Of a stretch of 64,000 nucleotides of DNA, positions 3,022-35,022 are shown piece by piece. The position numbers were made by a program, and so were the translations under genes. The first letter of the stretch is position 1, and every line of letters begins with the position of its first letter. Source of the stretch: Akkermansia muciniphila (GTDB lineage: Bacteria; Verrucomicrobiota; Verrucomicrobiia; Limisphaerales; UBA11320); the NCBI GenBank assembly GCA_945861575.1, contig CAMAVD010000003.1, positions 3,036-67,035 of the forward strand. Reading direction: 5' to 3'. The notes beneath the pieces are model-generated. The model was not told the DNA's origin and did no database searches. It worked only from the letters and a program-made list of their open reading frames with translations.

Positions 3022-3900
3022 TTAGTAGAGCCAGTGGGCAATGCTTCCGTCGTCACTGAGCCTCAAACCCTGTCGTCGATAGGCCCAGCACATATAGCTG
3101 ATGCTAACGAAGAACGAGGCCGGTAGGCGATTGGCGACGCAGATCTTCGCACCGAGCAGCGTGGTTTTGCCTCCGAAGCCCATCGGGCCTATGCCCAGCT
3201 CGTTGGCGGTGTTGACGATGTCCTGCTCAAGGCGGTCTAAGTCTGGATGCGGATTACGGTCTTCGAGACGTCGGAGGAACTGGGTCTTGGAGAGCTCGTA
3301 ACCGGTGGCGCGATCCCCTCCGATACAGATTCCCAGGATGCCCGGGCCGCAGCCCTTTCCCTGCGCCTGTATGATGGCGTCGAGGATCACTTTGCGGCAG
3401 CCGTTCAGGTCGCGGTTGGCATGAAGCGCCTCGTTTGGGAGTGAGTACTGTGCCCCCACGTTCTCGCAGCCGCCGCCTTTGAGAACCAGACGCACTTCCA
3501 CTTCTGAGCTGCGGTGTTGATGGAAGTGGAAGGCAGGAGCGCCCGGGCCTACATTGGTGCCGTCATTCTTGCCGGTGAGGGAATCCACCGAGTTCTGCCT
3601 GAGGAAGCCCTTGCGGGTGGCTAGGGTGACCGTTTCACGGGCGGTTTCTGCGAACTGAATCTGATCGAAGCCCACCGGGCAGTCGACGTAGAATAGAATG
3701 CTCCCGGTGTCCTGGCAGATGGGCTGGGATTTTTGTTTGGCCAGCTCGATGTTCCGTTCGATCAGCTTGAGAGCGGATTCCGCAATGGTTCCCTTCTTTT
3801 CCTGCTCGAGCGAGCGCAGGATTGCCTGGTGCACGTCCTCGGGAATCTCGGCGGAGGTGCGGCGAATCAGTTCAAGTAGGGAATCCGGCAAAGCGCGCAT
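3022..3900 (-). CDS. class I fumarate hydratase / tartrate dehydratase family, alpha (N-terminal domain) subunit
   Basis: Has the CQDTGS motif and GGGCEN. I place the start at internal Met MRALPDSLLE (ATG at 3900) rather than the track start at 4029. Confidence 0.85.
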   Translation of the reverse strand: MRALPDSLLELIRRTSAEIPEDVHQAILRSLEQEKKGTIAESALKLIERNIELAKQKSQPICQDTGSILFYVDCPVGFDQIQFAETARETVTLATRKGFLRQNSVDSLTGKNDGTNVGPGAPAFHFHQHRSSEVEVRLVLKGGGCENVGAQYSLPNEALHANRDLNGCRKVILDAIIQAQGKGCGPGILGICIGGDRATGYELSKTQFLRRLEDRNPHPDLDRLEQDIVNTANELGIGPMGFGGKTTLLGAKICVANRLPASFFVSISYMCWAYRRQGLRLSDDGSIAHWLY

Positions 3901-7106: not shown

Positions 7107-8237
7107 TCAGAGTTTCATGGACGCGGGGTCTACACCCTGTTCTCGGCACCAGTCTGCATAAGCAAAGGGGGAGATCTCTGAAGGCTTGATCTCACTGCGT
7201 CCTCCCCAGAATACATTCGTATAGAGAATAGGGATGCCCAGGCTCGTGAGGTGCGCATCAATGGCAGCCTTGTGCGCCAGCACCATGGGCTTTTCAGTGC
7301 CATGGGCGACACCCATCACGTTCACGTTCTTGAACTCCGGCCCGCCCTCGCGCCAGTAGGCGTGGGTCATGATGTGATGGCGTCCCACCTCGCGGCCGGC
7401 TTCGATTTCGCGTCCCGGGGGAACGGCCCAGTGGAACAGCGCGTTGAAGCGTGTGACTCGCTCGCCTTCATTGACCGGCTTCACATGCTCCAGGAAGGTG
7501 GAGAAGCGTCCGATCACTTTGCGGCGGTCCAGATCCTCCGCCACCTGATGGAAAACGGAGAGCGGCACGGCGGCTTCCGCCGCGCGCGCGACCCAAAGAT
7601 CTCGGACCAGCTCCTCGGGAGTGAATTCGCGCTTGAGCGCTACCAGGATTCGCCATTCGAGCTCGGACAATTGGGCGATCCGCACTTCGACCGCTTCTGC
7701 GGGCACGTCCGCTTTGCTGCCGGGCTCCATGCCGCGACGTCGCGTATGGCCCACGCCGAGGGCGAAAAGCCTCTTGGCGGGCATCAAGCGGAAGTGCTGC
7801 CCGCCAATCCGCTTTAAGAGCATCTCGCAATGTCGTTCCAGCGAGTAGCCTTGGGGGACCTTGAGAGTCGTCCAGAGCCGGTAATTCGAGCCCGCAGTCA
7901 CGTTGTCGGTGCTACGCGTGACGACATGTCCTGAAAAGGGGTCTTTTTGGAAGAGATAGTCGAATGCGGCTTCGAGACGTTCTTGGGGGACCTCCCAGGC
8001 GACCAGTGCTCCATCGGCGAGGTTCGTGGCGAGCAGGGTTTGTCGCACCCGACGGATTGTTCCCGCGGCCACCATGGCCCGGATACGTTCCAGGATGGTT
8101 TCGATGGGGAGGCCGGTTTGAATGGCGATCTGACCAAAGGGATCGCGATGGAAACCCTGAAGCTGATCCTCGGAAACCGCTAGGATGGCGGCATTCACTG
8201 GATCGTTGAAACTGACGGGAATGGTGTCCGAGCTCAT
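7107..8237 (-). CDS. two-domain Lrp/AsnC-fold protein resembling siroheme decarboxylase (NirDL/AhbAB) fusions
   Basis: 376 aa. The first half shows the pattern ...ILERIRAMVAAGTIRRVRQTLLATNLADGALVAWEVPQERLE...FSGHVVTRS...YRLWTTLKV. The second half repeats it loosely (...KVIGRFSTFL...MTHAYWRE...VMGVAHG). The call rests on pattern memory only. Confidence 0.5.
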   Translation of the reverse strand: MSSDTIPVSFNDPVNAAILAVSEDQLQGFHRDPFGQIAIQTGLPIETILERIRAMVAAGTIRRVRQTLLATNLADGALVAWEVPQERLEAAFDYLFQKDPFSGHVVTRSTDNVTAGSNYRLWTTLKVPQGYSLERHCEMLLKRIGGQHFRLMPAKRLFALGVGHTRRRGMEPGSKADVPAEAVEVRIAQLSELEWRILVALKREFTPEELVRDLWVARAAEAAVPLSVFHQVAEDLDRRKVIGRFSTFLEHVKPVNEGERVTRFNALFHWAVPPGREIEAGREVGRHHIMTHAYWREGGPEFKNVNVMGVAHGTEKPMVLAHKAAIDAHLTSLGIPILYTNVFWGGRSEIKPSEISPFAYADWCREQGVDPASMKL

Positions 8238-8542
8238 GACGGCATTGATATAACAGAACCTCCCGTCCTGTTGACCACCCTTTTATTGCGGGAAGGCCAC
8301 CCTCAGACGTGGTTTCTAGCTTCAAGCGAAGCAAGGACGTCTTCTTTCGCCAGCCGTTCTCGTTTTGAGAATGCACAGCCAAGTGTTCCGGTGAGGCGAT
8401 GGCGATGCTCCTCCCTCGATTCTTTCGCTTGCCCGGCGTATCTTTTCTGGATCATTCTCCAGATCATGCACCTCCGGCGCGATTCCAACCCGATCCCCAG
8501 GTCCTGCGCGGGCATTTTTCTGCCGATCTGGAGGGGCACCCC

Positions 8543-9340
8543 ATGAGATCGCTTCCCTGTTTCTTTCTTCTCTTCGGTTTGGTGGTATCTCTGGCCTCCG
8601 GAGTTCTCTTCAGTTCCTGCGGTACGATGGAGCAGACCCGTGTGGTGACGCCGCATATCGAGGGGGCATCCTTTGTTGGCAATAAGACCTGCTTCGAATG
8701 CCATACGAATATCTCCCGGGTTTTTCCGATGAGTCGTCATGCGCAGATTCAAATCGCTGGGGGCAAGGCTGGAGAGGTGTATGGATGTGAGTCGTGTCAT
8801 GGACCGGGGAGCCTGCATGTGGCTGCGGGGGGTGGGCGGGGTAAGTTTATCACCAATCCCGGGCAAAATCCCCAGGCCTGCTACGACTGTCATCTGCAAA
8901 CTCAGGCCGAGTTTAGTCTGCCCCATCATCACCCCGTTCCTGAGGGGCGTATGAACTGTGCCCAGTGTCATGACCCTCATGGACATGACATTTTAAAGCC
9001 CGCCTCTGCGGGTCTAGCCATGGCGCGTGTGAACGAAACCTGCGTGAGCTGTCATCGGGAGCAGGGACGTGTGCATGTCTTTGAGCATGAGGCGATGCGG
9101 GAAGGCTGCGTCAGTTGTCACAATCCACATGGTGGACCGCATCCCAAGATGCTCGTCGAGCGAGATAATAATCTCTGCCTCAAATGCCATGCCCAGATTC
9201 CTGTTCCGGGCACCGCAGGGGTTCAGATCTTCATCGGCAAACGCGATCACACGGCCAATCTCCGCCTGGGAGGGTGCTGGAGCTCAGGCTGTCATGCGGC
9301 CGTCCATGGCTCGCAGGTTCATCCCCGACTCTTCTATTAA
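8543..9340 (+). CDS. multihaem (7 CxxCH + 1 CX4CH) c-type cytochrome, probable lipoprotein
   Basis: Start taken at MRSLPCFFLLFGLVVSLASGVLFSSC, with ggagg 9 nt upstream. Haem motifs are CFECH, CESCH, CYDCH, CAQCH, CVSCH, CVSCH, CLKCH and a terminal CWSSGCH. It has doubled-CXXCH style spacing. Confidence 0.85.
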   Translation: MRSLPCFFLLFGLVVSLASGVLFSSCGTMEQTRVVTPHIEGASFVGNKTCFECHTNISRVFPMSRHAQIQIAGGKAGEVYGCESCHGPGSLHVAAGGGRGKFITNPGQNPQACYDCHLQTQAEFSLPHHHPVPEGRMNCAQCHDPHGHDILKPASAGLAMARVNETCVSCHREQGRVHVFEHEAMREGCVSCHNPHGGPHPKMLVERDNNLCLKCHAQIPVPGTAGVQIFIGKRDHTANLRLGGCWSSGCHAAVHGSQVHPRLFY

Positions 9341-9353
9341 CCTCAACTCCACC

Positions 9354-11738
9354 ATGAGAAAGCACAGGCGCCAACGTCGGGGATTTGGGGTGGGTTTGCT
9401 CGCGGGATTCGGAGCTCTTCTCGCGGCCGGGGCTGAGAATGTCGATGTCTCCAAGCTGCCACCGCCTGCCGCCGCCAAGGTCGACTTTGATCGCGATATC
9501 CGGCCGATTTTTGAGAAGAGCTGTCTGCGCTGCCATGGGCCGGAGAAGCCCAAGGGCGACTTTCGTCTGGACCGAGCCGACCTCGCTCTCAAGGCAGGCG
9601 AGCATGGCCCGGCGATCCTTCCAATGAAGAGTGAGCAGAGCCGTCTGATTCACTTTGTAGCCCGTTTGGTGCCGGACATGGAAATGCCCCCTGATGGCAA
9701 GGCTGAGCCATTGACGGCCGTGCAGGTCGGCTTGCTGCGGGCATGGATCGACCAGGGTGCCAGTTGGGGTGCCTCGAAGTCCGTGGATCCCTATCGTTTC
9801 GACTACACCACTCTTTTTGGCGCTACCTCGGTCCAGGGCAACGAGGCGAAGTTTCGGGAACACTTCTGGATGCCCCAGGGGGTGAACGGCGGGATCGAGC
9901 ATTTCAGTTTCAGCCAGCGTCAGAAAGACGACTCCACTTTCACGGCCAGCGGGCGGATTCTCCGCGATGACTATCGCGTGAGCCTCGCCTTGGAAAAGCC
10001 GAAGCTTGGATCGGTTCGTTTTGGTTGGGAGCAGTCACGTAAATATTTCTCCGACCTGGGTGGTTACCATCCGGGGTTGGCCGTACAAACGCCCGCCCTG
10101 GGTCGCGAGCTGTTCTTGGATGGAGGCCGGACCTGGTTTGATGTCACCTTGAATCGACCCGACTGGCCTGTGATCACACTGGGGTATGAGTACCAGTATC
10201 GGGATGGTGAGAAGTCCATGTTGAACTGGGGCAATACAGAGGATCCCACGACCACGGGCCGGAGCGTCTATCCGGCCTACAAGGGGATCCGCGAAGCGGT
10301 CCACATCCTGAAGTTCGACCTGGACTATTCTGTGGGTGACTGGCGTTTTCAGGATCAATTTCGTGGCGAATTCTTCGATTTACGTACGGAGAATCATCGA
10401 CTCCAGTATGACACTACCTTTTTCTCACTGACAGCGAATCAGGACAGTCGAGAGGGCACCCGTCATATCCAGGGGGCCAATGCTTTTCGGATCGAGCGCC
10501 CGATTCGCAGTTGGCTCTTCGGTTCGGCCGGCTATCTGTTCAGTCGCCTGGAGGGTGAGTCCTCAGTGGGTTTGTCGGGGACGTATTACGGAGATGCGGG
10601 TTCCCCGATCGCTGGCAGCATCGCCGCTCATGACATCATTCTCGACCGTCAGACCCACTTGGGGAACATCAACCTTATGGCCGGGCCCTGGGAAGGCTTC
10701 TCCGTGTCGGCTGGAGCTCAGACCGACTGGACGCATCAGCGCGGTTTCGGTGCTCCGGTGTTGAACATCCCTTTACTCGCGATTATTGACGGCATTGATT
10801 CCGTGAGCGCCAACTCCGATCGTAAGTCGGTGGAGGAGACCGTGATGGCGCGCTACACCAAGATTCCTGGCACGGTTCTTTTCGGGGACGCGAGAGTGCG
10901 TCAGGAGTCGGCGGATGTGACTCAAGAGCTCAACGACCTGAGCATTTTCTCATTCTCCCGTGAAAGCCACATCGGCTCCGAGTTGAAGGATTGGCGTGCG
11001 GGTTTCAACAACTCCTCGTTGTCGAGGGTGACCTTCGGTGGGCATTTCCGCCAGCGTCAGTACGCCGATCATTACGGAACGCGACTCGATGAATGGCTGG
11101 GGACCCCCACAGCGGGCTATCCCGCCTTTATCCGGGAACGGGAGACGTCGACGGACGAGGTTCAAGGGCAGATGACCGCGCGGCTCGCCTCCTGGTTTCG
11201 GTCCACCTTCACCTACAAATGGTCGGGGGTAGATTATTGGACGGTGACGGATCAGGAGGCCTCCGGCCCTGGCAGTCCGGGTGGGGGCCACTATAGCGGG
11301 AGGCAGATGGCGCAGAGCTTTAGCGTGGGTGGAGCCATTACTCCCTGGAGACGCCTCCGCTTGAACGAGAACTTTACCTACCGTCACACTCGCACCACCA
11401 CCGCGCAAAACGATATCGCGTCTGTGGTCCCCTTTCGCGGGGATCTCTACTCGGTCATTTCCGGCGCGACGTATCTGCTCACTCCCACCACCGATCTGAC
11501 TGCCAACTACACTTGGTCGCGTGCGGACTATGGCCAGGACCAGTTTGCCGGTGGGCTGCCACTGGGTTTGGATTATGAGCTTCACGGGCTTCAGACCGGG
11601 TTGGTTTGGAAGTTCCGCAAGCGATTCACCACTCGGGTGCAGTATGGCTTCTATCAGTACGACGAGAAGAACTCGGGCGGCTACAATAACTACACCGCTC
11701 ACGCCGTGTTCATGACGGTGAACGTCAAGATGCCCTGA
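9354..11738 (+). CDS. secreted PSCyt1 (Planctomycete cytochrome C) domain fused to a large beta-barrel-like domain
   Basis: Start at MRKHRRQRRGFGVGLLAGFGALLAAGA (signal peptide). The PSCyt1 signature is IRPIFEKSCLRCHGPEKPKGDFRL...MPPDGK...LLRAWIDQGASW. This is followed by about 650 aa that are aromatic- and Gly-rich with alternating strand-like sequence. Confidence 0.8.
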   Translation: MRKHRRQRRGFGVGLLAGFGALLAAGAENVDVSKLPPPAAAKVDFDRDIRPIFEKSCLRCHGPEKPKGDFRLDRADLALKAGEHGPAILPMKSEQSRLIHFVARLVPDMEMPPDGKAEPLTAVQVGLLRAWIDQGASWGASKSVDPYRFDYTTLFGATSVQGNEAKFREHFWMPQGVNGGIEHFSFSQRQKDDSTFTASGRILRDDYRVSLALEKPKLGSVRFGWEQSRKYFSDLGGYHPGLAVQTPALGRELFLDGGRTWFDVTLNRPDWPVITLGYEYQYRDGEKSMLNWGNTEDPTTTGRSVYPAYKGIREAVHILKFDLDYSVGDWRFQDQFRGEFFDLRTENHRLQYDTTFFSLTANQDSREGTRHIQGANAFRIERPIRSWLFGSAGYLFSRLEGESSVGLSGTYYGDAGSPIAGSIAAHDIILDRQTHLGNINLMAGPWEGFSVSAGAQTDWTHQRGFGAPVLNIPLLAIIDGIDSVSANSDRKSVEETVMARYTKIPGTVLFGDARVRQESADVTQELNDLSIFSFSRESHIGSELKDWRAGFNNSSLSRVTFGGHFRQRQYADHYGTRLDEWLGTPTAGYPAFIRERETSTDEVQGQMTARLASWFRSTFTYKWSGVDYWTVTDQEASGPGSPGGGHYSGRQMAQSFSVGGAITPWRRLRLNENFTYRHTRTTTAQNDIASVVPFRGDLYSVISGATYLLTPTTDLTANYTWSRADYGQDQFAGGLPLGLDYELHGLQTGLVWKFRKRFTTRVQYGFYQYDEKNSGGYNNYTAHAVFMTVNVKMP

Positions 11739-11985
11739 GGGGTCAGCGGCCGTTCTCATTCTGGCAAAGAACTCCCGGTGATCTAACGGTTCAATGCTCG
11801 CCTCACTCTGGGATCCCTCCAGGATCCTGTGCATTAAATCAGCGAACCGGTGGTGTCGTCCCGTGGGTCCTCAACCCACCGGCTATTGGCTGCGATCCCT
11901 TCGGGATCAGGTTCGAGTAAGTTCAACATTTCCGTTGACCCGGAGGGGTGCCGAGCGTAGGGACTAGGTCATCGCTCAGTCTCTC

Positions 11986-14352
11986 ATGAAATCACGCGCC
12001 CTAGTGGTTCTCTTGTTGCTTCCGGCGTTGCTCGCCCTGGGAGATTCTCCTAAGGGGGCGAGGACTCTCGAGGGAACTCTGCCGCTGGCCGAGGTGCCGG
12101 ATCGTTCCGCTGCCATGGTGGCGGGGATCGACCGTTTCCTTCTGGCGCAGACGGCTGCAGCTACCCGAGAGCGCACAAATCTGTGGCATCGCGACCTTTC
12201 TTCGGCGGCCGCGCACACTCGATCGGTCGAAACCAATCGCTCTCATCTGAGGCGCATCCTTGGGGTTGTGGATGAGCGACTCCCGGTCACCGAACTTTTT
12301 CGAATCGATTCCACCTCCCATCCGGCCCTGGTCGCTAGGACCGCCTTGTTTAGGGTGTGGGCGGTACGGTGGCCGGTGTTCGAAGGGGTGTTCGGAGAGG
12401 GCCTGCTGCTCGAGCCCATGGGACGCACTCATGCCCGGGTTGTAGCCATACCTGATGCGGATCAAACCCCGGAGATGCTGGCGGGTCTTGCGCCGGGGCT
12501 TCCTCCGCAGTCGCAATTCGCCCGTCGCTTGGCGGAGACCGGATGTGAAGTGCTCGTGCCCGTGATTGCGAGTCGGCAGGATGACGCTTCCGGCAACGCC
12601 GCGCTGGGCCGTTTCACCAATCTCCCCCATCGCGAATGGATCTATCGGCAGGCGTTCGAGTTGGGGCGTCACGTGATCGGCTACGAGCTCCAGAAGATCT
12701 TGGCGGCAGTGGATTGGTTCACTCTCGAGAATCAACCGATGGGAAAACGTGCGGGCACTCCCGCCATTGGTGTGATGGGGTATGGGGAAGGAGGACTGCT
12801 GGCTCTATGCGCTGCCGCAATCGATCGACGAATCGCCTCGGTAGTGGTGAGTGGCTACTTTGAATCCAGGGAAGGCGTCTGGGAGGAGCCCATTTATCGC
12901 AATGTGTTTGGGCTGCTGCAGGAGTTTGGGGATGCCGAGATCGCGAGTCTTATCGCTCCGCGTTCGCTCCGGATTGAACACAGTGCGGGCCCGGCGGTTC
13001 TGGGGCCTCCTGCCCCTCGGGACGGTCGGCGCGGAGCCGCCCCCGGAAAGATAACCCCGCCTGAATACGCTTCAGTGGAAACAGAGTTTCGACGCGCTCT
13101 GGCCCTAGTGGATGCACCGTGGGCCTCCGAATTCGCTGAACTCATCAACGGAAGCGAAGGGGGGTATGTCGAGGTGGGATCGGACAAGACTCTGGTAGGA
13201 TTTCTGAGCTCTTTGACCTTGGTGCCCATCGAGCGGATGCCTGTCCTTGGGCCGGAACCCATCGATCGTCGTGAAGGTTTCGATCCCTCCCGACGCCAGG
13301 CATCGCAAGTCGACGAAATGGTTCAGCACACCCAACGCTTGCTTCGGCGCTCAGAGGCGACGCGCGACCGCCGGGTACCCGCGCTGCTGCGCCCTCGCGG
13401 CACCGAGGATCGGCGAGAGCTTCTCAGGGAACAGCAAGGGGTTCTTTGGGATGATGTGATCGGGAGATTCCCTCCGCCCACCGAGTCGGCCATGCCACGC
13501 AGTCGTCTCATTCACGAAGAGAAAGCGTGGGTGGGTTACGATGTGACTTTTGATCTTTGGCCCGAGGTGTTCGCGTGGGGGGTGCTCCTGCTTCCCAAGG
13601 ATTTGAAGCCGGGCGAGCGCCGTCCTGTGGTAGTCTGTCAGCACGGTCTGGAGGGACTTCCGTTTAACATCATCACTCAGAATCCGAAGCATCCTTCATA
13701 TCAAGGCAATCTTGGATTCGCCTCCCGGCTGGTTGAGCGGGGTTTTGTGGTGTTTGCGCCCCACAATCCTTATCGAGGAGAGGATCGGTTCCGCGTCCTC
13801 CAGAGGAAGGCCAATCCGCTGGGTAAGTCCCTCTTCTCGGTGATCCTCGCGCAGCACGAGCGCATATTGGATTGGCTTTCCGCTCAGACCTTTGTTGATC
13901 CGAAGCGCATCGCTTTCTACGGCATTTCCTACGGAGGCAAGACCGCGATGCGTGTGCCGGCGTTGCTGGATCGGTACTGTCTCTCCATCTGCTCGGCCGA
14001 TTTCAACGAGTGGATTCAGAAGAATGTGACGGTTGATTCGGGTTACAGCTATCTCTACACCGGAGAGTACGAGTTGCCTGAGTTTAACCTGGGCCATACT
14101 TTCAATTACGCCGAGATGGCGGCGTTGATTGCTCCGCGTCCTTTCATGGTGGAGCGGGGGCATGATGATGGAGTGGCGCCCGATGAATGGGTTGCTCACG
14201 AATATGCTCGGGTGCGGCGCTTGTATGCCAAGCTAGGGATTCCGGAGCGAACAGAGATCGAGTTCTTCAATGGGCCGCACGCCATTCACGGACACGGAAC
14301 GTTCCGCTTTCTGCACCGGCATCTGAACTGGCCAGAGCCAAAGAGCCCTTGA
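11986..14352 (+). CDS. secreted tandem alpha/beta-hydrolase (dienelactone hydrolase/esterase-like) protein
   Basis: Signal peptide MKSRALVVLLLLPALLALG. There are two hydrolase-fold halves. The second carries GISYGG plus HDDG and a C-terminal His. The first has GYGEGG at the nucleophile elbow. Confidence 0.8.
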   Translation: MKSRALVVLLLLPALLALGDSPKGARTLEGTLPLAEVPDRSAAMVAGIDRFLLAQTAAATRERTNLWHRDLSSAAAHTRSVETNRSHLRRILGVVDERLPVTELFRIDSTSHPALVARTALFRVWAVRWPVFEGVFGEGLLLEPMGRTHARVVAIPDADQTPEMLAGLAPGLPPQSQFARRLAETGCEVLVPVIASRQDDASGNAALGRFTNLPHREWIYRQAFELGRHVIGYELQKILAAVDWFTLENQPMGKRAGTPAIGVMGYGEGGLLALCAAAIDRRIASVVVSGYFESREGVWEEPIYRNVFGLLQEFGDAEIASLIAPRSLRIEHSAGPAVLGPPAPRDGRRGAAPGKITPPEYASVETEFRRALALVDAPWASEFAELINGSEGGYVEVGSDKTLVGFLSSLTLVPIERMPVLGPEPIDRREGFDPSRRQASQVDEMVQHTQRLLRRSEATRDRRVPALLRPRGTEDRRELLREQQGVLWDDVIGRFPPPTESAMPRSRLIHEEKAWVGYDVTFDLWPEVFAWGVLLLPKDLKPGERRPVVVCQHGLEGLPFNIITQNPKHPSYQGNLGFASRLVERGFVVFAPHNPYRGEDRFRVLQRKANPLGKSLFSVILAQHERILDWLSAQTFVDPKRIAFYGISYGGKTAMRVPALLDRYCLSICSADFNEWIQKNVTVDSGYSYLYTGEYELPEFNLGHTFNYAEMAALIAPRPFMVERGHDDGVAPDEWVAHEYARVRRLYAKLGIPERTEIEFFNGPHAIHGHGTFRFLHRHLNWPEPKSP

Positions 14353-14392
14353 GTGAGTGTGAAGACCCTTGGACGGCGTGTGCGGGTTGAAC

Positions 14393-15235
14393 CTAGCCGT
14401 ACCGGCCTTCGATGTAGTCCGCTGTTTTGGGGTGCTTTGGGATCAGGAAGAGGTCCTCGGTGCGGCTGTGCTCGATGAGTTCTCCCATCAGCATGAACAG
14501 GCATTCGTCGCTGGAGCGGCGTGCCTGGGCCATGTTGTGGGTAACGATCACCATGGTGTAGCGACCCTTCAGCGCGAACATCAATTCCTCGATCGCGCGG
14601 GTACCATCGACATCGAGCGCGCTACAAGGTTCGTCCATCAGAATAATCTGAGGCTTGAGCGGTAGGAGTCGGGCGATGCACAGCTTCTGCTGCTGCTCGA
14701 GCTGGAGCTCCGTTGCCTTACCCTTCAGCCGATCCTTCAGATCTTTCCAAAGACCGACCTCGGTCAGCGCCTTTTCAACCGCATCGTCCAGGTCCGACCT
14801 GGATGGGGTTCGCTCGCTATGGATACGGATTCCGAAGACCACGTTCTCGTAAATCGATATGGGAAGCGGATTGGGACGTTGGAACACCATGCCCACGCTC
14901 TTACGAAGCTCAATCAGCGAAACGTCCGGGTCATAGATGTTCTTGCCCTCAATCTTGATCTCGCCCTTGGTGGTGACGTAGCCGTAGCGCTCGTTCACTC
15001 GATTGAAACACCGGAGCAGAGTGGTCTTGCCGCATCCGCTTGGACCGATCAGTGAGGTGATCAATCCATGGCGAATGTCCACGGTGACGTTTTTCAATGC
15101 CTGGAAGCTGCCATACCACAGGGAGAGGTCGCGCGCGACGAGGCTGTAGCTGGGACTGCCGACTTGGATTGGGGCCTGGGCGTTTGGATCCATGGGCAAC
15201 GGCGTTTGCTGATTATCCAAAGATGCCGTTGACAT
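14393..15235 (-). CDS. pstB: phosphate ABC transporter ATP-binding protein PstB (canonical copy)
   Basis: Walker A GPSGCGKTT, Q-loop MVFQ, signature LQLEQQQ, Walker B ILMDEP, H-loop VTHNM and C-terminal YIEGRYG. The start is ambiguous (15193, 15235 or 15268). Confidence 0.9.
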   Translation of the reverse strand: MSTASLDNQQTPLPMDPNAQAPIQVGSPSYSLVARDLSLWYGSFQALKNVTVDIRHGLITSLIGPSGCGKTTLLRCFNRVNERYGYVTTKGEIKIEGKNIYDPDVSLIELRKSVGMVFQRPNPLPISIYENVVFGIRIHSERTPSRSDLDDAVEKALTEVGLWKDLKDRLKGKATELQLEQQQKLCIARLLPLKPQIILMDEPCSALDVDGTRAIEELMFALKGRYTMVIVTHNMAQARRSSDECLFMLMGELIEHSRTEDLFLIPKHPKTADYIEGRYG

Positions 15236-16022
15236 AGTCGTAGGTTCTGCGGTCTTTGGGTTGATCACTGAACATCACTTCCGTGCGGTCGATCTCCACA
15301 ATCTCACCGTTCCAGAGGAACATCGTGCGGGCTGCGAGGCGACGTGCCTGCTGCACCAGATTGGTCACGAGAATGATGGTCATGTGGCGTTTCAGCTCCT
15401 TGAGCACGTCCTCGATCCGCATCGTGGTCACGGGATCGATGGCGATACTGAACTCGTCGAGACAGAGGATCTCGGGTTCGTGGGAGAGAGCGCGCGCGAT
15501 GGTGAGGCGTTGCTGCTGGCCCCCGGAGAGCTTGGTGCCGAGTGAGTCGAGCCGGTCCTTGACCTCATCCCAGAGCGCGGCCTGACGCAGGCATCGTTCG
15601 ACCAGTTCGTCCAGGAGTCCCTTGTTTCGCTGTCCTGCAGCCCGGGGAGCAAAGGCGACGTTGTCGTAAATGCTCAGCGGGAGGCCAACAGGCAGGGGGG
15701 CGACCATGCCGATGCGGCGCCGCAATTCGTAGACGTTCTGAATCGTTTGAGTGTCCTCGCCGTCGATTCGGATCTTCCCCGACATTTTAGCCCCCGCGGT
15801 GAACTCGATCGTTCGATTGATGCAGCGAAGCAAGGAGGTCTTCCCTGATTGCGCTGGGCCGATCACCCCGAGGATCTCGTTCGGCTCGATGTGAAAGGAG
15901 ATGCCATGAATGACCTCCTTTGGGCCGTAGGACAGGCGCAGATTGTCCACCTCGATCTTGCGAGGGGCACTCGTCGAGGTGCGATCTGAGGCTGTGGGGG
16001 AGGAGGTGGCTTGGGCTACCAT
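15213..16022 (-). CDS. PstB paralogue with degenerate Q-loop and H-loop
   Basis: Start at MVAQATSS, overlapping the pstA stop as ATGGTAG. Walker A GPAQSGKTS, signature LSGGQQQR and Walker B LCLDEF are present. MVAP replaces MVFQ, and VTNLVQQA replaces VTHNMQQA. Confidence 0.85.
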   Translation of the reverse strand: MVAQATSSPTASDRTSTSAPRKIEVDNLRLSYGPKEVIHGISFHIEPNEILGVIGPAQSGKTSLLRCINRTIEFTAGAKMSGKIRIDGEDTQTIQNVYELRRRIGMVAPLPVGLPLSIYDNVAFAPRAAGQRNKGLLDELVERCLRQAALWDEVKDRLDSLGTKLSGGQQQRLTIARALSHEPEILCLDEFSIAIDPVTTMRIEDVLKELKRHMTIILVTNLVQQARRLAARTMFLWNGEIVEIDRTEVMFSDQPKDRRTYDYVNGIFG

Positions 16023-16945
16023 TTCTTTCGAGATCTGAGGTGGATGCGGAAGGCAATGGCGGCCGCGTTGACCAGGACGACCACTCCTATAAGAACGGTG
16101 GCGATTGTGTAGGGAAGTTCCTTGGGTGCGCCGCTGGCCTGCGTTGCGATGTAATACAAATGCATCGAGAGCGCCATGCACTGGTCTTTGATCGGGTGAT
16201 AGAGAAAGAATCCTGTGGTATCGAGCATCTTCCAGGTGGTCACGCCCGTGAGCATGACGGGAGCTGTTTCCCCTGCCGTGCGCGATACCTGGAGAATGAC
16301 TCCCGTCAGGATTCCGCTGATGGAGTTCGGCAGAACGATCCGACGAATGGTTTGCCAACGTGTCGCTCCCACATTCCAGCAGGCCTCACGGAAGGTCAGG
16401 GGGACACTCGACAGCGCCTCCTTGGTAGAGGCGATGATGACGGGCAAGGTCATCACTGCCAGTGTGAGCGCGGCCGCAATGATCGATTTCTTGCCGTCGT
16501 TGAAGTTGGCAAAGTAAACGAAGGCACCCACTCCGAAGAGACCGTGGACGATGCTGGGCACGCCGGCTAGGTTCACCACCGCGAGGTTTACGATCCGGGT
16601 GAAGATATTGTCGCGCGCATACTCATTGAGATAGACTGCGGCCAGCACACCAATAGGAGCGGAGATCGCCAAGGAGAAGAAGACGATGTAGAGCGTGCCA
16701 ATCAGGGCGGACCAGATCCCGCCGCGAACGCCGCCGCCCCGGGGATTGGTCGTCAGGAATTCCCAGGAGAGCAGAGGCCAGCCTTTGACTACGACATAGC
16801 CGATAATCAGCAACAGAGGCACGATCATGGCACAGGCCATGCCTCCGAAGAAGACCTTCGCCAACCATTCGGTGCGGATCTTCCTGCGGACGAACGGTGT
16901 CTCCGCGAATGATCCGATAGGGATGCGTGTGGTGGGGGTGCTCAT
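16016..16945 (-). CDS. pstA: phosphate ABC transporter permease PstA
   Basis: 309-aa polytopic permease in the pstA position. It has EAxxxxGA-type motifs (REACWNVGATRWQTIRRIVLP). Confidence 0.9.
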   Translation of the reverse strand: MSTPTTRIPIGSFAETPFVRRKIRTEWLAKVFFGGMACAMIVPLLLIIGYVVVKGWPLLSWEFLTTNPRGGGVRGGIWSALIGTLYIVFFSLAISAPIGVLAAVYLNEYARDNIFTRIVNLAVVNLAGVPSIVHGLFGVGAFVYFANFNDGKKSIIAAALTLAVMTLPVIIASTKEALSSVPLTFREACWNVGATRWQTIRRIVLPNSISGILTGVILQVSRTAGETAPVMLTGVTTWKMLDTTGFFLYHPIKDQCMALSMHLYYIATQASGAPKELPYTIATVLIGVVVLVNAAAIAFRIHLRSRKKW

Positions 16946-16950
16946 GGCGC

Positions 16951-17844
16951 TTACTTTTTTCGGATACCCTTGACCACGAGATCGGCCGTGAGATTGACGA
17001 CAAAGGTGATGGTGAAGAGGAGAACACCGATCAGGAAGAGCACCTGATAATGTTCGGAGCCCTTCGAGGTCTCGCCCAGTTCGGCAGCAATGGTCGCCGT
17101 CAGGGTGCGGACTGGATCAAAGACGCTCTGAGGGATACGAACCGAATGACCTGTGGCCATGAGCACTGCCATGGTCTCTCCGATCGCTCGTCCTACGCCC
17201 AGCAGCACAGCGGCCAGCAGTCCATTCTTGGAGGCGGGGAGCAGCACGCGGCGAATCATCTGCCAGCGGGTGGCGCCCAGAGCCACGGCGGCTTCGCGAT
17301 AGCTGTCTGGCACCGCCTTGAGCGCGTCCTCTCCGATGCTCACCATAATGGGCACGCTCATGAGCGCGAGCAGGAGGGCTCCGTTGAGCATGTTGACCCC
17401 GATAGGAGTGTGGAAAGTGTTGATCAGCAGAGGGCTCATCACGCCGAGGCCGATGAAGCCCCAGACCACGCTGGGGATGGCGGCCAGAAGCTCTATGACC
17501 ACCTTCAGGGTCTCCTTGGTCTTCTTTCCGCAGAATTCGGACACGAACACGGCCGCGCCGAGTCCGAAGGGGACCGCAATCACCATGGCGAGCATCGTGA
17601 CACTCAGCGTCCCGACGATCAGCGCGCCTACGCCGTATTTTGGTATGTTTTGCGACGTGGGAATCCAGGAGGTGCTGAAAAGGAACTCGCCAAGGTTGAT
17701 ACTCTTGAGCGCCGGGGCGGCTTCTTTGAATACGAAAAAGAAGATGCCGAAGACGAACAAGATGGCACTGAAGCCACAGAGGTGAATCAGGGCTTCAACT
17801 GCCTTTTCGGACACTCTCTCAAAATGGGCTCGGAAGGGTCGCAT
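16951..17844 (-). CDS. pstC: phosphate ABC transporter permease PstC
   Basis: 297-aa permease containing EAAVALGATRWQMIRRVLLP, located directly downstream of pstS. Confidence 0.9.
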   Translation of the reverse strand: MRPFRAHFERVSEKAVEALIHLCGFSAILFVFGIFFFVFKEAAPALKSINLGEFLFSTSWIPTSQNIPKYGVGALIVGTLSVTMLAMVIAVPFGLGAAVFVSEFCGKKTKETLKVVIELLAAIPSVVWGFIGLGVMSPLLINTFHTPIGVNMLNGALLLALMSVPIMVSIGEDALKAVPDSYREAAVALGATRWQMIRRVLLPASKNGLLAAVLLGVGRAIGETMAVLMATGHSVRIPQSVFDPVRTLTATIAAELGETSKGSEHYQVLFLIGVLLFTITFVVNLTADLVVKGIRKK

Positions 17845-17901
17845 GCGCTACGAATAAGACCCGGGCCGGAAGGTCGGCCCGGGTCGTTGGGGGGGGACAG
17901 T

Positions 17902-18822
17902 TTACTTCTTCGGGAGCGGGACGTAGCCGGTTTGCTCGACGATATGCTGCCCGGCTTCGGACATCGTCCAATCGATATACTTCTTCACGTGCTCCGGTGG
18001 CTCACCCGCGGTGTAGAGGAACATCGGGCGGGCAATAGGATAGGTCTTGTCCAGGGTAGTTGCGACGGTGGCGGCGACGCTTGGCTGACCCTTCTTCTTT
18101 GAAACCTTCAACTGCTTCACATCCGGCGTGGCGTAGCCCATCCCCGAGTAGCCGAGGGCGTTCGGTGTCTTGGAGATCAAATCCACGACGTCCTTGGATC
18201 CGTTCATATCGAGGGAGCCGAGCTTGAACTCGTTTTTCTTACCCACGATGGCCTCCTTGAAGTAGTGATAGGTGCCCGAGTTGTTCTGGCGGCTGACACG
18301 GATGATTTCGTCACCCTTGGCTCCAGGAACGGTTACTCCCAATTCGGACCATTTAGTGATGGTGGCGCCCTCCTTGTAGATCTCGGTCAGCTGCTCCATG
18401 GAGATTTCGGTCATGGGATTGTCCTTATGGACAAAGATGGACAGCGCGTCGTAGCCGACCATGTACTCTTTGGCCTCTTTGTTATGCTTGGTCTTGAGCT
18501 CCGTGACCTCCTTCTCCTCGATGTGACGGCTGCTATTCGCCACGTCGCAGGTGCCGTTGATCAAGGCGGCCATGCCTTGTCCTGACCCGCCGCCATTTAC
18601 TTCGACGGAGACCGTCTTATCGATGGCGCCGTAGGCCTCTGCCCAGGCGGCAGCCAAATTCACCATGGTGTCGGACCCAATGTTGGCAATGGTCTTTTTC
18701 TTGGCGGGAGCTTCGGTGGTGGTGGAGCTTCCGCCGCAGCCGGTTGTGACGAGGGCTGCGACCAAGCCGCATGCTGCGGAGTGGGCCAGTGCTTGAAATC
18801 GAGGGTGGATGAGGGCGTTCAT
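17902..18822 (-). CDS. pstS: phosphate-binding lipoprotein PstS
   Basis: Start taken at MNALIHPRF... with the lipobox-like LVTTGC. PstS-family motifs are present: GSDTMVNLA and GGGSGQGMAAL...DVANSSR. Confidence 0.85.
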   Translation of the reverse strand: MNALIHPRFQALAHSAACGLVAALVTTGCGGSSTTTEAPAKKKTIANIGSDTMVNLAAAWAEAYGAIDKTVSVEVNGGGSGQGMAALINGTCDVANSSRHIEEKEVTELKTKHNKEAKEYMVGYDALSIFVHKDNPMTEISMEQLTEIYKEGATITKWSELGVTVPGAKGDEIIRVSRQNNSGTYHYFKEAIVGKKNEFKLGSLDMNGSKDVVDLISKTPNALGYSGMGYATPDVKQLKVSKKKGQPSVAATVATTLDKTYPIARPMFLYTAGEPPEHVKKYIDWTMSEAGQHIVEQTGYVPLPKK

Positions 18823-18847
18823 AATCGTTCGGTCTCTGTTCGTTGAG

Positions 18848-19945
18848 TTAATCGATCTTGTCACTGAGTACGGCTTCTAGAATCTCTTCAATATGCGAAT
18901 GCAGCGTCGTGAAGGCGGCTTCGTAAGCGGCTGCTTTCTGTTCGGCTGAACCGGTGGTCTGGGAGGGATCTGGCAACGTCCAGTCTAGGCAGACTGCCTT
19001 GGTTCCTGCGGGGAAGGCCTTGCGTGCAACGGGGTCGAGCGCGACCAGGATCTGGGAAAACTCGAGGTTCGGGATTTGGTCGATCGACTTAGGAGTCGCC
19101 TTGGAGATGTCGATTCCCTTGCTGGCCAGGAATTCGATGGCTCCGGGGGCGATGGGCTTGGGATCCAGACCTGCACTCGAGAAGATGAACTTGGGCTGGT
19201 TGAGCGATTGAGCGATGCCCTCTGCCAGTTGGCTGTTGCACGCGTTGTGGTCATCGATGAAGATCATCCTCCACACCTCGCCGCCCATATGTTTCTGGTA
19301 ATCTCCCGTCACCAGATAGAGGGTCTCCTCGCAGATATTCTTGGCCTGATCCGATACGCGCTCGAAACGTCGTGCGATGGTCATCAGAGGCGTGAGTGCG
19401 CTGAGTGGGATTTTGTCTTCCTGTCGAAGTTGCACCAACTCCGCATTGATCTGGCTTTTTAGCCCATCCACTTCCTCTTCGATCACCATGGTGGTGCGCG
19501 CCAATGCCGCGTCCCCGGTCAGATAGGCCTTCACCGCATTCCGGAGCATGGGAATGGAAAGGGCTGCGATCTCGCGATAGCGATGGAGCGGGATGGGGAC
19601 GGGTAAGTTGGAGACCTTTAAGATCTGGCGGGCAATGCTCTCAGCATAGTCTCCGATGCGCTCGATCTCTTGGTTGATCTTGATCGTGACATAGGCAAAG
19701 CGGAGGTGGCGTGCCACCGGTTGCTGCCGGACAATGAATTCCAGGCAAAGACGGTCGATCTCTTTCTCCAACTCGTCGATTCGCCGGTCCCGCAGGATCA
19801 CCGAGTAGGCGAGTTGGCGGTTTCGCTCCAACAAACCTCTCAGGCAACCATCCAGAGCCCCTTCCGCCAACTGGGCCATCTCTGAGACCTTGGCTTGGAT
19901 GCGATCGATGTCGCGCTGCATCGACTGTTCGTAGTGAGTGCCCAT
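18848..19945 (-). CDS. phoU: PhoU (two PhoU repeats) fused to a C-terminal degenerate LMW-PTP/ArsC-like domain
   Basis: Start at MGTHYEQSMQRDIDRI (ATG at 19945). PhoU repeat motifs are DYAESIARQ and RVSDQAKNICEE. The C-terminal roughly 135 aa align with ArsC/LMW-PTP: IFIDDHNACNSQLAEG against FICTGNSCRSQMAEG, plus ...SAGL... and ...LPDPS. Confidence 0.85.
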   Translation of the reverse strand: MGTHYEQSMQRDIDRIQAKVSEMAQLAEGALDGCLRGLLERNRQLAYSVILRDRRIDELEKEIDRLCLEFIVRQQPVARHLRFAYVTIKINQEIERIGDYAESIARQILKVSNLPVPIPLHRYREIAALSIPMLRNAVKAYLTGDAALARTTMVIEEEVDGLKSQINAELVQLRQEDKIPLSALTPLMTIARRFERVSDQAKNICEETLYLVTGDYQKHMGGEVWRMIFIDDHNACNSQLAEGIAQSLNQPKFIFSSAGLDPKPIAPGAIEFLASKGIDISKATPKSIDQIPNLEFSQILVALDPVARKAFPAGTKAVCLDWTLPDPSQTTGSAEQKAAAYEAAFTTLHSHIEEILEAVLSDKID

Positions 19946-20000
19946 ATCGTTAGCTAATTTCTTACGTTGAGAGGCCACTGTTACGCATGCGTGGCCCAAA

Positions 20001-32844: not shown

Positions 32845-35022
32845 ATGAATTTGGAACAGAGGAACCAGTTTAAGCAGCTCGTCGAGAAGATCAGTCTAGA
32901 GTTGGTGTTTGCCCAGGCTGGGTCGGACTCAGGTCTGCTTCCCGCGAACAGCATCCTTGCACAACTAGAGGAGCTTCCTATCGCCGCTTCGGGGCAGCAG
33001 GGGATTGCCGAGGCGGTTACCTTGGCGCGGAAGTGGATCGATGGTGCCTTAGAGACTACTGCCACCTTTGATGCCCAGACCATCAAACTTCTAGGGGAGT
33101 GGTGTGAGTGGGGGCAGAACGCCGCGGATGCCTGGATCGGTGATGTGCCGATACCGGCGGTTCCCGCGGCATGGCGCACGGCGGTCAGTGTCCCCGCCGC
33201 CACTGCCGGATCCTCCAATGCGGGCGGGGCTCATCGCCTGGCCGAGCCCGAACCCGATGCTCCGCTTCTGATGAACATTGAGGCCGACGGCGACCTGCTT
33301 CGCGAGTTTGCGAACGAGTCCCAGGAGCACCTTCAGAATATTGAGCAAGGAGTGCTCGTGCTCGAGGACAGTCCTCGAGATCGGGATACCTTGAATTCGA
33401 TCTTCCGCGCATTCCACACCTTCAAAGGAGGTTCTGGCCTGCTCAATCTCATGCCGATGAACCGCACGGCGCATGAATTGGAAAATCTGCTTGATCTCGC
33501 CCGGCAGGATAAACTTCAGATCACCCTGGAGATCATCAACATCATTCTCGAGGGTGGCGACGCCCTGAAGCAGTACATCGATGAGATGAATCAGCAGCTG
33601 TCGGGTGCGAAGCCGCCCGGCCCGATTCTGGTTCGTACACGCGACTTGATCGTGAGGGTCCGCGCTGCCGCGGCAGGATCGGTGATTCCACCTCCTGCCG
33701 CTGTTCCAAGCCCTTCCGTGCCCGCGGCGCCGGCGGCTGCATCAGACGTGTCGCCCAGCGCTCCAACCCACGCGGCGGCAGATTCAAAAGGGGTGCCCGC
33801 TTCCAGCGGACATGCCCGGACTGCGGCGACGACAGGCGGTGCGGTGGTCAAGGTGGACACCTTCAAGCTGGATAGCCTGGTGGATCTGGTCGGTGAGATG
33901 GTTATCGCTCAATCGATGGTTCAGCTCGATCCCCAAGTCGCGAAGCTGAACAATCAGAACTTGAATCGCAACATGGCTCAGCTGGGTCGGATTACCAAGG
34001 AGCTTCAGCGAATTGCCATGTCGATGCGCATGGTTCCCATACGCCCTACATTCCAGAAGATGAACCGGCTGGTCCGGGACGTTGCGGCGAAGCAGGGGAA
34101 GCAGGTTGATCTGGTTCTCACCGGCGAGGATACGGAGCTGGATCGCACGATTGTCGAGGAGATCAGCGACCCGCTGGTGCACATGATCCGCAATGCCGTG
34201 GATCACGGCATTGAGCAGCCAGCCACCCGAACGGCTGCCGGGAAGTCCGCCCACGGAACCATCCGATTGAGCGCCTACCATCAGGGCGGGAATATCGTCA
34301 TCCAGATCAAGGACGACGGCGGTGGTTTGCGGAAGGACAAGATTATCAAGAAAGCGATTGAAAACGGGATTATCAGACCCGACCAGCAGTTGCCTGATAA
34401 GGAAATTTTCGATCTAATTTTTGCTCCGGGCTTCTCCACGGCGGATCAGGTGACCGATATCTCCGGCCGCGGGGTCGGGATGGATGTGGTGAAGCGAAAT
34501 ATTGAGAAGCTTCGAGGCAAGGTTGAGATCGATTCCGTTGTTGGGCAGGGATCTGTCTTCAACATCTATCTCCCCCTCACCCTCGCCATCATTGACGGCC
34601 TGATTATCAATGTGGGCAAAGAGCGGTTCATCCTGCCGACACTGTCCGTGCGTGAATCCTTCCGTCCCACACCTCAAATGATTTCGACGGTTCACGAACG
34701 GGGCGAGATGGTCAATGTGCGGGGGCGTCTCTACCCGCTGTTGCGTCTTTACGAGGCCTTTAACATCAAGCCCAAGTCCGAAAAGATCGAAGAGGGGATC
34801 GTGATCGTGATCGAGGCTGGACAGGATGTCCGCTGTCTTCTGGTGGATCAGCTTGTCGGCAAGCAAGAGGTGGTGATCAAGAGTTTGGGAGAGACCTTCC
34901 GGGCGAATCCAGCGGTCGCCGGCGCTGCGATCATGGGAGATGGCCGCGTGGGGCTGATTCTTGACGTGAACACCCTCGTTCGAGTTCGACAGCTCACGGC
35001 TAGCCTTGTCCGAGCGGCCTAG
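32845..35022 (+). CDS. cheA: chemotaxis histidine kinase CheA
   Basis: Hpt domain (FRAFHTFKGGSG), dimerisation and HATPase domains (DHGIE, GRGVGMDVV) and a C-terminal CheW-like domain. About 150 extra N-terminal residues are present. Confidence 0.9.
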   Translation: MNLEQRNQFKQLVEKISLELVFAQAGSDSGLLPANSILAQLEELPIAASGQQGIAEAVTLARKWIDGALETTATFDAQTIKLLGEWCEWGQNAADAWIGDVPIPAVPAAWRTAVSVPAATAGSSNAGGAHRLAEPEPDAPLLMNIEADGDLLREFANESQEHLQNIEQGVLVLEDSPRDRDTLNSIFRAFHTFKGGSGLLNLMPMNRTAHELENLLDLARQDKLQITLEIINIILEGGDALKQYIDEMNQQLSGAKPPGPILVRTRDLIVRVRAAAAGSVIPPPAAVPSPSVPAAPAAASDVSPSAPTHAAADSKGVPASSGHARTAATTGGAVVKVDTFKLDSLVDLVGEMVIAQSMVQLDPQVAKLNNQNLNRNMAQLGRITKELQRIAMSMRMVPIRPTFQKMNRLVRDVAAKQGKQVDLVLTGEDTELDRTIVEEISDPLVHMIRNAVDHGIEQPATRTAAGKSAHGTIRLSAYHQGGNIVIQIKDDGGGLRKDKIIKKAIENGIIRPDQQLPDKEIFDLIFAPGFSTADQVTDISGRGVGMDVVKRNIEKLRGKVEIDSVVGQGSVFNIYLPLTLAIIDGLIINVGKERFILPTLSVRESFRPTPQMISTVHERGEMVNVRGRLYPLLRLYEAFNIKPKSEKIEEGIVIVIEAGQDVRCLLVDQLVGKQEVVIKSLGETFRANPAVAGAAIMGDGRVGLILDVNTLVRVRQLTASLVRAA

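Follow-up and report, generated by a model that had tools for sequence, protein, structure and literature searches.

A verrucomicrobial gene pair encoding an MtrA-like octahaem lipoprotein and a haem-bearing barrel protein, a probable electron conduit of the outer membrane

Two adjacent genes on the forward strand of contig CAMAVD010000003.1 (assembly GCA_945861575.1, deposited as Akkermansia muciniphila) are described here within a 64,000-nucleotide (nt) stretch, positions 3,036 to 67,035 of the contig, which is referred to below as the window. The first gene encodes an octahaem c-type cytochrome with a lipoprotein signal peptide. The second, which follows after an intergenic gap of 13 nt, encodes a secreted protein in which a PSCyt1 monohaem domain precedes a predicted outer-membrane β-barrel (Table 1). 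The first-pass annotation had read this pair as a candidate porin–cytochrome electron conduit on the logic of MtrA/MtrB. Both open reading frames (ORFs), the seven CxxCH motifs and the terminal CWSSGCH, the 13-nt spacing, the lipobox and the CLRCH motif of the PSCyt1 domain are exactly as it described, and its conduit reading is now supported by the fold of the barrel, the pairing of the genes and the homology of the cytochrome to MtrA.

Relation of the octahaem cytochrome to MtrA

The best sequence match of the octahaem cytochrome in the Protein Data Bank (PDB) is 6r2q_A (E = 2.7e-25), a chain of 333 amino acids (aa) from the Mtr complex that is MtrA, the molecule name in the match table being evidently mislabelled. 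The first-pass annotation had left room for a cytochrome of a known periplasmic reductase family; the closest solved relative is instead a barrel-inserted cytochrome. The protein also matches two NCBIfam decahaem families, DmsE/MtrA (TIGR03508; 137.3 bits, E = 6e-40) and GSU2203 (138.1 bits). Both scores lie below the curated cut-offs of 192.2 and 325, and the seven CxxCH motifs plus one Cx4CH motif fall short of the ten haems by which TIGR03508 is defined. Haems 3–8 align with MtrA residues 180–326 and haems 1–2 with residues 62–114; at the level of the alignment, the octahaem protein therefore looks like MtrA minus two haems of its N-terminal half.

The haem motifs occur in the order CFECH, CESCH, CYDCH, CAQCH, CVSCH, CVSCH, CLKCH and CWSSGCH. 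The last takes the form C[WFYS][SA][SAG]GCH in 45 listed homologues, most commonly CWSAGCH, and a C-terminal Cx4CH recurs throughout the 120 homologues collected. All eight motifs are invariant in an alignment of 49 octahaem sequences, including C245, C250 and H251 of the eighth, and so are eight further histidines (H66, H92, H130, H146, H182, H196, H236 and H255). Eight conserved motifs within 240 residues, accompanied by eight invariant histidines, are a sequence pattern far beyond chance, and the additional histidines are enough for the predicted bis-His ligation of every haem.

The N-terminus carries a real lipobox, as had been suspected: its C26 is invariant in the same alignment, a strict lipobox pattern matches 97 of the 120 homologues, and three more among the 45 listed, missed by that pattern, were recognized by eye. 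Residue +2 is Gly or Ser in the homologues, and we therefore infer sorting of the lipoprotein to the outer membrane. The start codon was placed at 8543 rather than at the ATG at 8399 because of the Shine–Dalgarno-like GGAGGGG upstream of it; this start also fits the length of the homologues (255–280 aa). No promoter-like sites were found in a scan of positions 8100–12100, and terminator-like sites occurred there at chance level.

Modelled fold of the haem-bearing barrel

The second protein is recognized by the PSCyt1 family PF07635 over residues 57–115 (60.7 bits against a gathering score of 22). C57, C60 and H61 of the haem motif and the downstream M111-P112-P113 are invariant among 48 fused homologues, which is the sequence signature of a putatively His/Met-ligated, class-I-like cytochrome c. 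By comparison, the C-terminal region of approximately 650 aa has no match in Pfam or NCBIfam.

The AlphaFold2 (AF2) model of this protein, computed from a 48-sequence alignment, consists of a helical N-terminal domain and 26 strands, with a mean predicted local distance difference test score (pLDDT) of 85.1 and a predicted template-modelling score (pTM) of 0.75; residues 1–27 are modelled with low confidence. The modelled strands form an antiparallel barrel without a plug domain, as in MtrB. In a Foldseek search of the PDB the top match is MtrB itself (6r2q_B, E = 4.9e-15), with template-modelling (TM) scores of 0.54 and 0.65 when normalized to the query and the target, respectively. All later matches are 22-strand TonB-dependent transporters, with E values of at least 1.8e-10 and TM scores of at most 0.47. 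The long C-terminal region is modelled as the membrane barrel that the first-pass annotation had suspected from its composition, and not as a propeller or solenoid. We also observed that the fused barrels end in ...x-P (VKMP in the window, 11724–11738), whereas outer-membrane proteins typically end in an aromatic residue and the unfused relatives described below end in F.

Distribution of the pair and origin of the fusion

Homologues of the fused protein fall into more than 1,600 clusters at 90% identity. PF07635 is present in all but one of 120 listed homologues, the exception being an N-terminally truncated fragment. The named homologues are nearly all from Verrucomicrobiota, including Pedosphaera parvula. 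When genomes were scanned, one for each species, 577 matches were confirmed; the best 80 were retained, and the barrel is present at 51 of these loci. Every fused locus with upstream DNA (47 of 47) has the octahaem gene as its immediate upstream neighbour on that strand; the other four end at a contig edge. Within flanks of 8 kb, these 47 loci contain no other gene with three or more CxxCH motifs. The gene pair is thus conserved in all informative loci. Of the two phyla in which the first-pass annotation had proposed to test for synteny, the fused form was found almost solely in records labelled Verrucomicrobiota, and none was found in Planctomycetota.

A search with the barrel region alone against 1.8 billion representative sequences returned 720 clusters at 50% identity. 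In a neighbour-joining tree of this region, 66 fused members form one clade, to which only two N-terminally truncated sequences and one odd sequence are added. Since the fused members share one clade, the barrel sequences show a single origin of the PSCyt1–barrel fusion.

Relatives without the haem domain

The unfused barrels, which come from Desulfobacterota and Verrucomicrobiia, are 650–710 aa long; their signal peptide leads straight into the barrel, with no haem motif. Seven distinct unfused loci were examined (two of those retrieved, L081 and L082, hold identical genes). All seven have an orthologous octahaem lipoprotein gene directly upstream, with the same seven-plus-one motifs and lipobox and with 53–54% identity to the window protein. 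One unfused relative (P0422) approaches the MtrB/PioB family PF11854 with 20.5 bits, below the cut-off of 23.

These pairs are accompanied by further redox genes. In L081, L086 and L090 a cytochrome of 843–887 aa lies beside the pair; the one in L081 has nine counted CxxCH motifs and an MtrC/MtrF domain match, and an NrfD gene also lies upstream of the cluster in L081 and L090. L085 combines the unfused pair with a monohaem cytochrome c and a NapC/NirT-type cytochrome, and L092 with a Fer4–NrfD–monohaem cytochrome c module. Judged from their predicted products, these neighbours are those expected of electron conduits. The separate monohaem cytochromes were considered as the ancestor of the PSCyt1 domain and rejected: the haem motif alone matches, so that the fusion is an analogue, and not a descendant, of the separate genes.

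Other features of these loci were recorded. A sigma-54 two-component system precedes the unfused cluster in L081, L086 and L090, and three consecutive radical-SAM genes (one with a SPASM domain) and then FeoAB follow it (approximately 9200–13000). In L091, a Desulfobacterales metagenome-assembled genome, the pair is followed by genes for an LTXXQ protein, a three-domain multicopper oxidase, CopB, a SHOCT protein and a P-type ATPase (9083–15223), a neighbourhood that is copper-resistance-like. A CHRD-domain protein is encoded directly upstream of the octahaem gene in the Desulfobacterota loci L083 (5513–6025) and L091 (5696–6181), and a protein with CHRD, Temptin_C and Big_7 domains lies upstream in one fused verrucomicrobial locus (L021, 5613–6938).

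Genes linked to the fused pair

In the window, the fused pair stands alone between a divergent AhbA/B-like gene and an α/β-hydrolase gene, neither of which is conserved beside the pair elsewhere, and no other ORF with two or more CxxCH motifs occurs anywhere in the 64 kb. The AhbA/B-like gene (7107–8237, minus strand, 305 nt from the octahaem gene) encodes a 376-aa protein with two AsnC-type ligand-binding domains that matches the siroheme decarboxylase subunits AhbB (63 bits) and AhbA (50 bits), both below the cut-offs. From these matches it could be a fused AhbA/B of the alternative haem pathway (NirDL-like) or a regulator; as a component of the system it was rejected for its lack of conservation next to the pair.

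By comparison, many other fused loci share a linked gene. A secreted protein composed of an N-terminal cupredoxin domain (PF00127), a Big_7 Ig domain and a conserved C-terminal domain is encoded on the same strand in 18 of the 51 loci, as identified with phmmer; tblastn with the P. parvula protein raises this number to 21, also catching relatives with Big_7 only. The gene lies either directly after the barrel gene or 1–2 kb before the octahaem gene (Table 1). Its product retains the type-1 copper ligand pattern (H...C..H...M), and its C-terminal domain carries a conserved '...FYRV..LPNP'. None was found in 29 control loci (375 kb), chosen solely for the unrelated PSCyt1 genes that they contain and bearing for the most part the label Verrucomicrobiota. 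A neighbour cluster of 26 loci and 232 aa from an all-against-all BLAST comparison proved to be a mixture of antisense ORFs and real cupredoxin–Big_7 genes. SCO1/SenC–CusF genes occur in eight fused loci.

The most extensive linkage is found in P. parvula Ellin514 (L089, 2745–13400; ABOX02000023.1). On one strand, genes for COX2–cytochrome c, COX1+COX3, CtaG, an unknown ORF, a Rieske protein and cytochrome b–c are followed, after a gap of 275 nt, by the octahaem, fused barrel and cupredoxin–Big_7 genes. The oxidase is of caa3 type, COX1 is fused to COX3, and cytochrome b is fused to cytochrome c. In its components this gene run is reminiscent of the rus and petI operons of Acidithiobacillus ferrooxidans; the rus operon links Cyc2 with a cupredoxin and an aa3-type oxidase.

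A leucyl-tRNA synthetase gene was observed in L004 (1841–5242, minus strand) and 12 further loci. Its 1,133-aa product matches PF18812 (PBECR3, a Barnase/EndoU/colicin-like nuclease domain) at residues 658–770 with 67.8 bits. The match falls inside the synthetase and may reflect either a genuine insertion or similarity to an insertion domain specific to this enzyme.

Table 1. Positions of the gene pair and its parts in the window, and of cupredoxin–Big_7 genes in other fused loci (locus coordinates)
Feature	Position	Strand	Basis
Shine–Dalgarno-like GGAGGGG, 6 nt before the ATG at 8543	8530..8536	+	sequence reading
Octahaem c-type cytochrome lipoprotein, MtrA/DmsE-family homologue, 265 aa	8543..9340	+	translation, NCBIfam, PDB sequence match
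Lipoprotein signal peptide, lipobox LFSS-C26	8543..8620	+	translation, conservation in homologues
Seven CxxCH motifs (C50, C82, C113, C139, C167, C189, C212)	8690..9190	+	translation, alignment
Eighth haem motif CWSSGCH (Cx4CH)	9275..9295	+	aligns with last haem motif of MtrA (6r2q_A)
Signal peptide, PSCyt1 monohaem domain and predicted 26-strand outer-membrane β-barrel, 794 aa	9354..11738	+	Pfam, AF2, Foldseek
Sec-type signal peptide, residues 1–27, probable cleavage after AGA	9354..9434	+	sequence reading
PSCyt1 haem c domain, residues ~30–135	9441..9758	+	PF07635, helical in AF2 model
CLRCH, C57–H61	9522-9536	+	PSCyt1 domain
Putative axial Met111	9684-9686	+	invariant in homologues
Predicted 26-strand β-barrel, residues 147–793	9792..11732	+	AF2, Foldseek
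Cupredoxin–Big_7 gene	L004 10411-11676
Cupredoxin–Big_7 gene	L005 6859-7725
Cupredoxin–Big_7 gene	L007 6070-6981
Cupredoxin–Big_7 gene	L008 7607-8449
Cupredoxin–Big_7 gene	L033 9605-10726
Cupredoxin–Big_7 gene	L019 2757-3680
Cupredoxin–Big_7 gene	L026 5257-6153
Cupredoxin–Big_7 gene	L089 12504-13400

A conduit model and the direction of electron flow

We consider it likely that the pair forms a trans-outer-membrane electron conduit on MtrAB logic. The octahaem protein, with eight bis-His haems, would be attached by its N-terminal lipid to the outer membrane, on the inner leaflet, and would run through the 26-strand barrel, so that its haem chain spans the membrane. The PSCyt1 domain would sit at the periplasmic mouth, because it precedes strand 1 of a barrel with an even number of strands and the termini of the structural counterpart are periplasmic. 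In this position its His/Met haem could serve as a tethered relay that connects haem 1 of the octahaem protein with redox partners in the periplasm or inner membrane, a role that a separate monohaem cytochrome c gene would fill in unfused relatives. As the fused module has no MtrC-like extracellular cytochrome, the outermost haem would react directly with soluble or colloidal substrates.

The complete scheme, a conduit with a tethered PSCyt1 relay and inward flow, is offered tentatively, and we rate it a little short of evenly balanced. Donors outside the cell, for example Fe(II) or reduced humic quinones, would be oxidized, and the electrons would pass to high-potential carriers, namely the cupredoxin and cytochrome c oxidase. 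Four observations favour this direction. His/Met ligation is usually high-potential, as is therefore likely for the PSCyt1 haem; no extracellular multihaem gene lies within 8 kb in any of the 47 loci, as in MtoAB and PioAB; the cupredoxin–Big_7 protein (18–21 of 51 fused loci, none of the 29 control loci) and SCO1/CusF are partners; and caa3 oxidase and Rieske/cytochrome b genes precede the pair in the cultured aerobe P. parvula. The cupredoxin partner and the P. parvula oxidase/bc cluster hint at electron uptake. It is possible, though on the unlikely side, that abundant Verrucomicrobiota of soil and fresh water, most of them aerobic, use the fused form for electron uptake and that it passes electrons from extracellular Fe(II) or reduced humics through cupredoxin to a caa3 oxidase or bc complex.

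Several observations weigh against the scheme or parts of it. Of the profile searches that the first-pass annotation had proposed, that for PSCyt1 was positive (60.7 bits), whereas the MtrB/PioB family PF11854 gave no match to the window barrel at E ≤ 0.01. Profiles built from the fused (A1) and unfused (A2) barrels likewise missed 6r2q_B in the PDB even at E ≤ 10. The proposed link of the barrel to MtrB comes from modelled fold and context only; the barrel is predicted to be MtrB-like in fold and working, yet is no demonstrable member of PF11854. The alternation of hydropathy between odd and even positions in the 26 modelled strands is weakly above that of shuffled sequences (z = 1.5), probably since the strands are long, up to 29 residues, and reach past the bilayer. 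The AF2 model of the octahaem protein alone, from the 49-sequence alignment, is unusable (pLDDT 51.7, pTM 0.31). In the window, homologues of cupredoxin–Big_7, COX, Rieske and cytochrome b were searched for and none was found, and there is no quinol dehydrogenase or other multihaem gene. Linkage to oxidase and Rieske genes was rejected as a general rule, as it is confined to P. parvula and appears at none of the other loci (0/51).

Further points concern direction and bear on the strongest alternative, that the same conduit works outward, with PSCyt1 collecting respiratory electrons from periplasmic carriers for delivery to extracellular Fe(III), Mn(IV) or humic quinones. We regard this as possible and on the unlikely side. 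Outward flow was what He et al. 2017 proposed for verrucomicrobial clusters of a porin and an eight-haem cytochrome from anoxic, humic-rich water. Limisphaera isolates respire ferrihydrite and ferric citrate, and their genomes are reported to encode a porin that bears a single N-terminal haem motif; should this porin be a member of the present barrel family, their ferrihydrite reduction would point to outward flow. The reducing-type partners of the unfused relatives, cytochromes with MtrC/MtrF domains and quinol-dehydrogenase-type modules with NrfD or NapC/NirT, lean the same way and against uptake. The fused clade, however, has lost the linked extracellular multihaem cytochrome (0 of 47 loci), and its locus partners are instead a cupredoxin, SCO1/CusF and, in an aerobe, a caa3 oxidase. 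General haem chemistry also suggests that electrons would tend to become trapped if a chain of bis-His haems began with a His/Met haem.

A role of the same conduit in metal homeostasis, through reduction of Fe(III) or Cu(II) at the surface for uptake or through redox detoxification of copper, appears improbable. FeoAB follows the unfused clusters of Verrucomicrobiia; in one Desulfobacterales locus, genes for a multicopper oxidase, CopB and a P-type ATPase follow the pair immediately, and in Desulfatiglans a P-type ATPase is found near the pair; fused loci show linkage to cupredoxin, SCO1/CusF and Cu-oxidase_4 genes. These metal genes nevertheless vary by lineage, with none in the window, no TonB-dependent or siderophore genes are linked, and a nine-haem apparatus would be costly for assimilatory reduction. 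That the barrel is a large solute or polymer channel and the cytochromes purely periplasmic, for instance as a PSCyt-type oxidoreductase, is very unlikely: the barrel lacks sequence-level MtrB/PioB membership, PSCyt1 domains otherwise occur in periplasmic proteins of unknown function and strand amphipathicity is weak, but MtrB is the best structural match with an equal strand count, pairing with an MtrA homologue is obligatory across Verrucomicrobiota and Desulfobacterota, and the unfused clusters have MtrC-like partners.

Porin–cytochrome conduits are the known means of electron exchange between diderm bacteria and minerals, humics, electrodes or partner cells, and to our knowledge almost all mechanistic understanding of them comes from Proteobacteria and Geobacter. 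The fused module is very common in a phylum that dominates many soils and lakes, and is present in P. parvula, which is cultured, aerobic and genetically approachable. It would offer a natural experiment in conduit design, in which the haem wire is shorter and lipid-anchored and the relay cytochrome is part of the sheath protein. Tools such as FeGenie and Pfam-driven annotation may miss it, because no curated model exists for the barrel or for the octahaem subfamily. Uptake, if true, would add Verrucomicrobiota to the oxidizers of iron or humics. As a device of the soil and freshwater lineages, it would make these 'polysaccharide degraders' facultative lithoheterotrophs and would represent a second, independent invention of the Cyc2–rusticyanin–oxidase logic on an Mtr scaffold. 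Outward flow, if true, would account for the recently described respiration of Fe(III) by Limisphaera.

Additional observations in the window

Two further haem proteins and a phosphate-uptake cluster were noted. A methyl-accepting chemotaxis protein (36835–38511, plus strand), encoded beside CheA (32845–35022), has a periplasmic Tll0287-like sensor with a CLACH haem c motif and, from this domain, may sense redox or gas. The gene at 38560–41538 (plus strand) encodes 992 aa with DUF7133 (400 bits), HEAT repeats and a C-terminal cytochrome c domain (CMVCH), an architecture that is typical of the Planctomycetes–Verrucomicrobia–Chlamydiae (PVC) group but uncharacterized. The phosphate-uptake cluster (14393–19999, minus strand) contains two tandem PstB paralogues of 291 and 381 aa, the longer with an N-terminal extension of approximately 130 aa, as well as genes for a phosphate-binding protein and for a fusion of PhoU with a low-molecular-weight phosphatase/ArsC-like domain.

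Comparison with known electron conduits

In the Mtr complex, MtrB is a 26-strand sheath that holds MtrA, with the MtrA N-terminus directed towards the periplasm (PMC12076491). The window pair resembles MtrCAB of Shewanella (6R2Q) in the homology of its cytochrome to MtrA, in a modelled 26-strand barrel whose best structural match is MtrB, and in the gene order of cytochrome then barrel. It differs in having eight haems instead of ten, in a barrel that shows no similarity to MtrB at the level of hidden Markov models and has a haem c domain at its N-terminus, and in the absence of an MtrC-like gene from the 64-kb window and from the 8-kb flanks of the fused loci. MtrA is made as a soluble periplasmic precursor without a lipid anchor, whereas the window cytochrome is a lipoprotein with a conserved lipobox and invariant C26.

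MtoAB(–CymA–MtoD) of Sideroxydans and PioAB(C) of Rhodopseudomonas palustris, which serve Fe(II) oxidation, are likewise two-gene modules without an extracellular cytochrome. MtoD is a monohaem cytochrome c that acts as a small, high-potential periplasmic partner. The unfused loci L085 and L092 are similar in having a separate monohaem cytochrome c and a NapC/NirT or NrfD module. By comparison, the monohaem unit in the window is a PSCyt1 domain covalently fused to the barrel, its partner has eight haems and a lipid anchor, and homology of the barrel to MtoB or PioB is undetectable by sequence. The Pcc system of Geobacter (OmaB/OmbB/OmcB) also combines an eight-haem cytochrome on the periplasmic side, an outer-membrane barrel and a lipoprotein cytochrome, and its proteins are reported as not homologous to Mtr. 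The window octahaem protein, by contrast, is an MtrA/DmsE homologue; the lipoprotein of the window pair is the cytochrome proposed to be inserted in the barrel, and no OmcB-like dodecahaem partner occurs in the 64-kb window or within 8 kb in the 47 loci.

Within Verrucomicrobiota, He et al. 2017 predicted for freshwater members a novel porin of at least 20 strands clustered with an eight-haem cytochrome and sometimes an extracellular multihaem cytochrome, found these clusters in anoxic, humic-rich water and proposed electron export to humic substances (PMC5615132). Compared by description, the window pair is similar as a verrucomicrobial pair of a barrel of at least 20 strands and an eight-haem cytochrome, and the published description applies in full to the unfused loci L081, L086 and L090 of Verrucomicrobiia. 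Unlike the window protein, however, the porin is not mentioned as carrying a haem domain; PSCyt proteins are treated separately there, as periplasmic or cytoplasmic (PMC5615132), and the fused form in the window has no extracellular cytochrome. The clusters of that study came from Opitutus terrae PB90-1 and Trout Bog metagenome-assembled genomes, and no Opitutus protein is among the listed barrel matches. More recently (2026), respiration of ferrihydrite and ferric citrate was reported for two Limisphaera species, for the first time in this phylum; their genomes encode multihaem cytochromes associated with porins, among them a porin that has one haem motif at its N-terminus (PMC13608581). The first-pass annotation knew of no conduit characterized in PVC bacteria. 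This stands for biochemical characterization; as to description, the eight-haem porin cluster had been predicted (PMC5615132) and the one-haem porin noted (PMC13608581). The proposed PSCyt1–barrel conduit is thus partly anticipated in the literature and its novelty smaller than first supposed, although we found no paper that defines the architecture, its fold, distribution or partners.

The supposition that no described barrel protein carries a cytochrome domain has to be withdrawn, since Cyc2 is an established fused cytochrome–porin, with 16 strands, one haem and approximately 400–550 aa and with no multihaem partner (PMC8406198). The window protein resembles Cyc2 of Acidithiobacillus and Mariprofundus in the order of its parts, a signal peptide followed by one N-terminal CxxCH domain and then by an outer-membrane barrel in the same polypeptide, and in the linkage to a cupredoxin and an aa3-type oxidase in some genomes, which for the window family is seen in P. 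parvula. By comparison, the window protein is distinguished from Cyc2 by its 26 modelled strands, its 794 aa, its PSCyt1-type domain and its obligatory octahaem partner.

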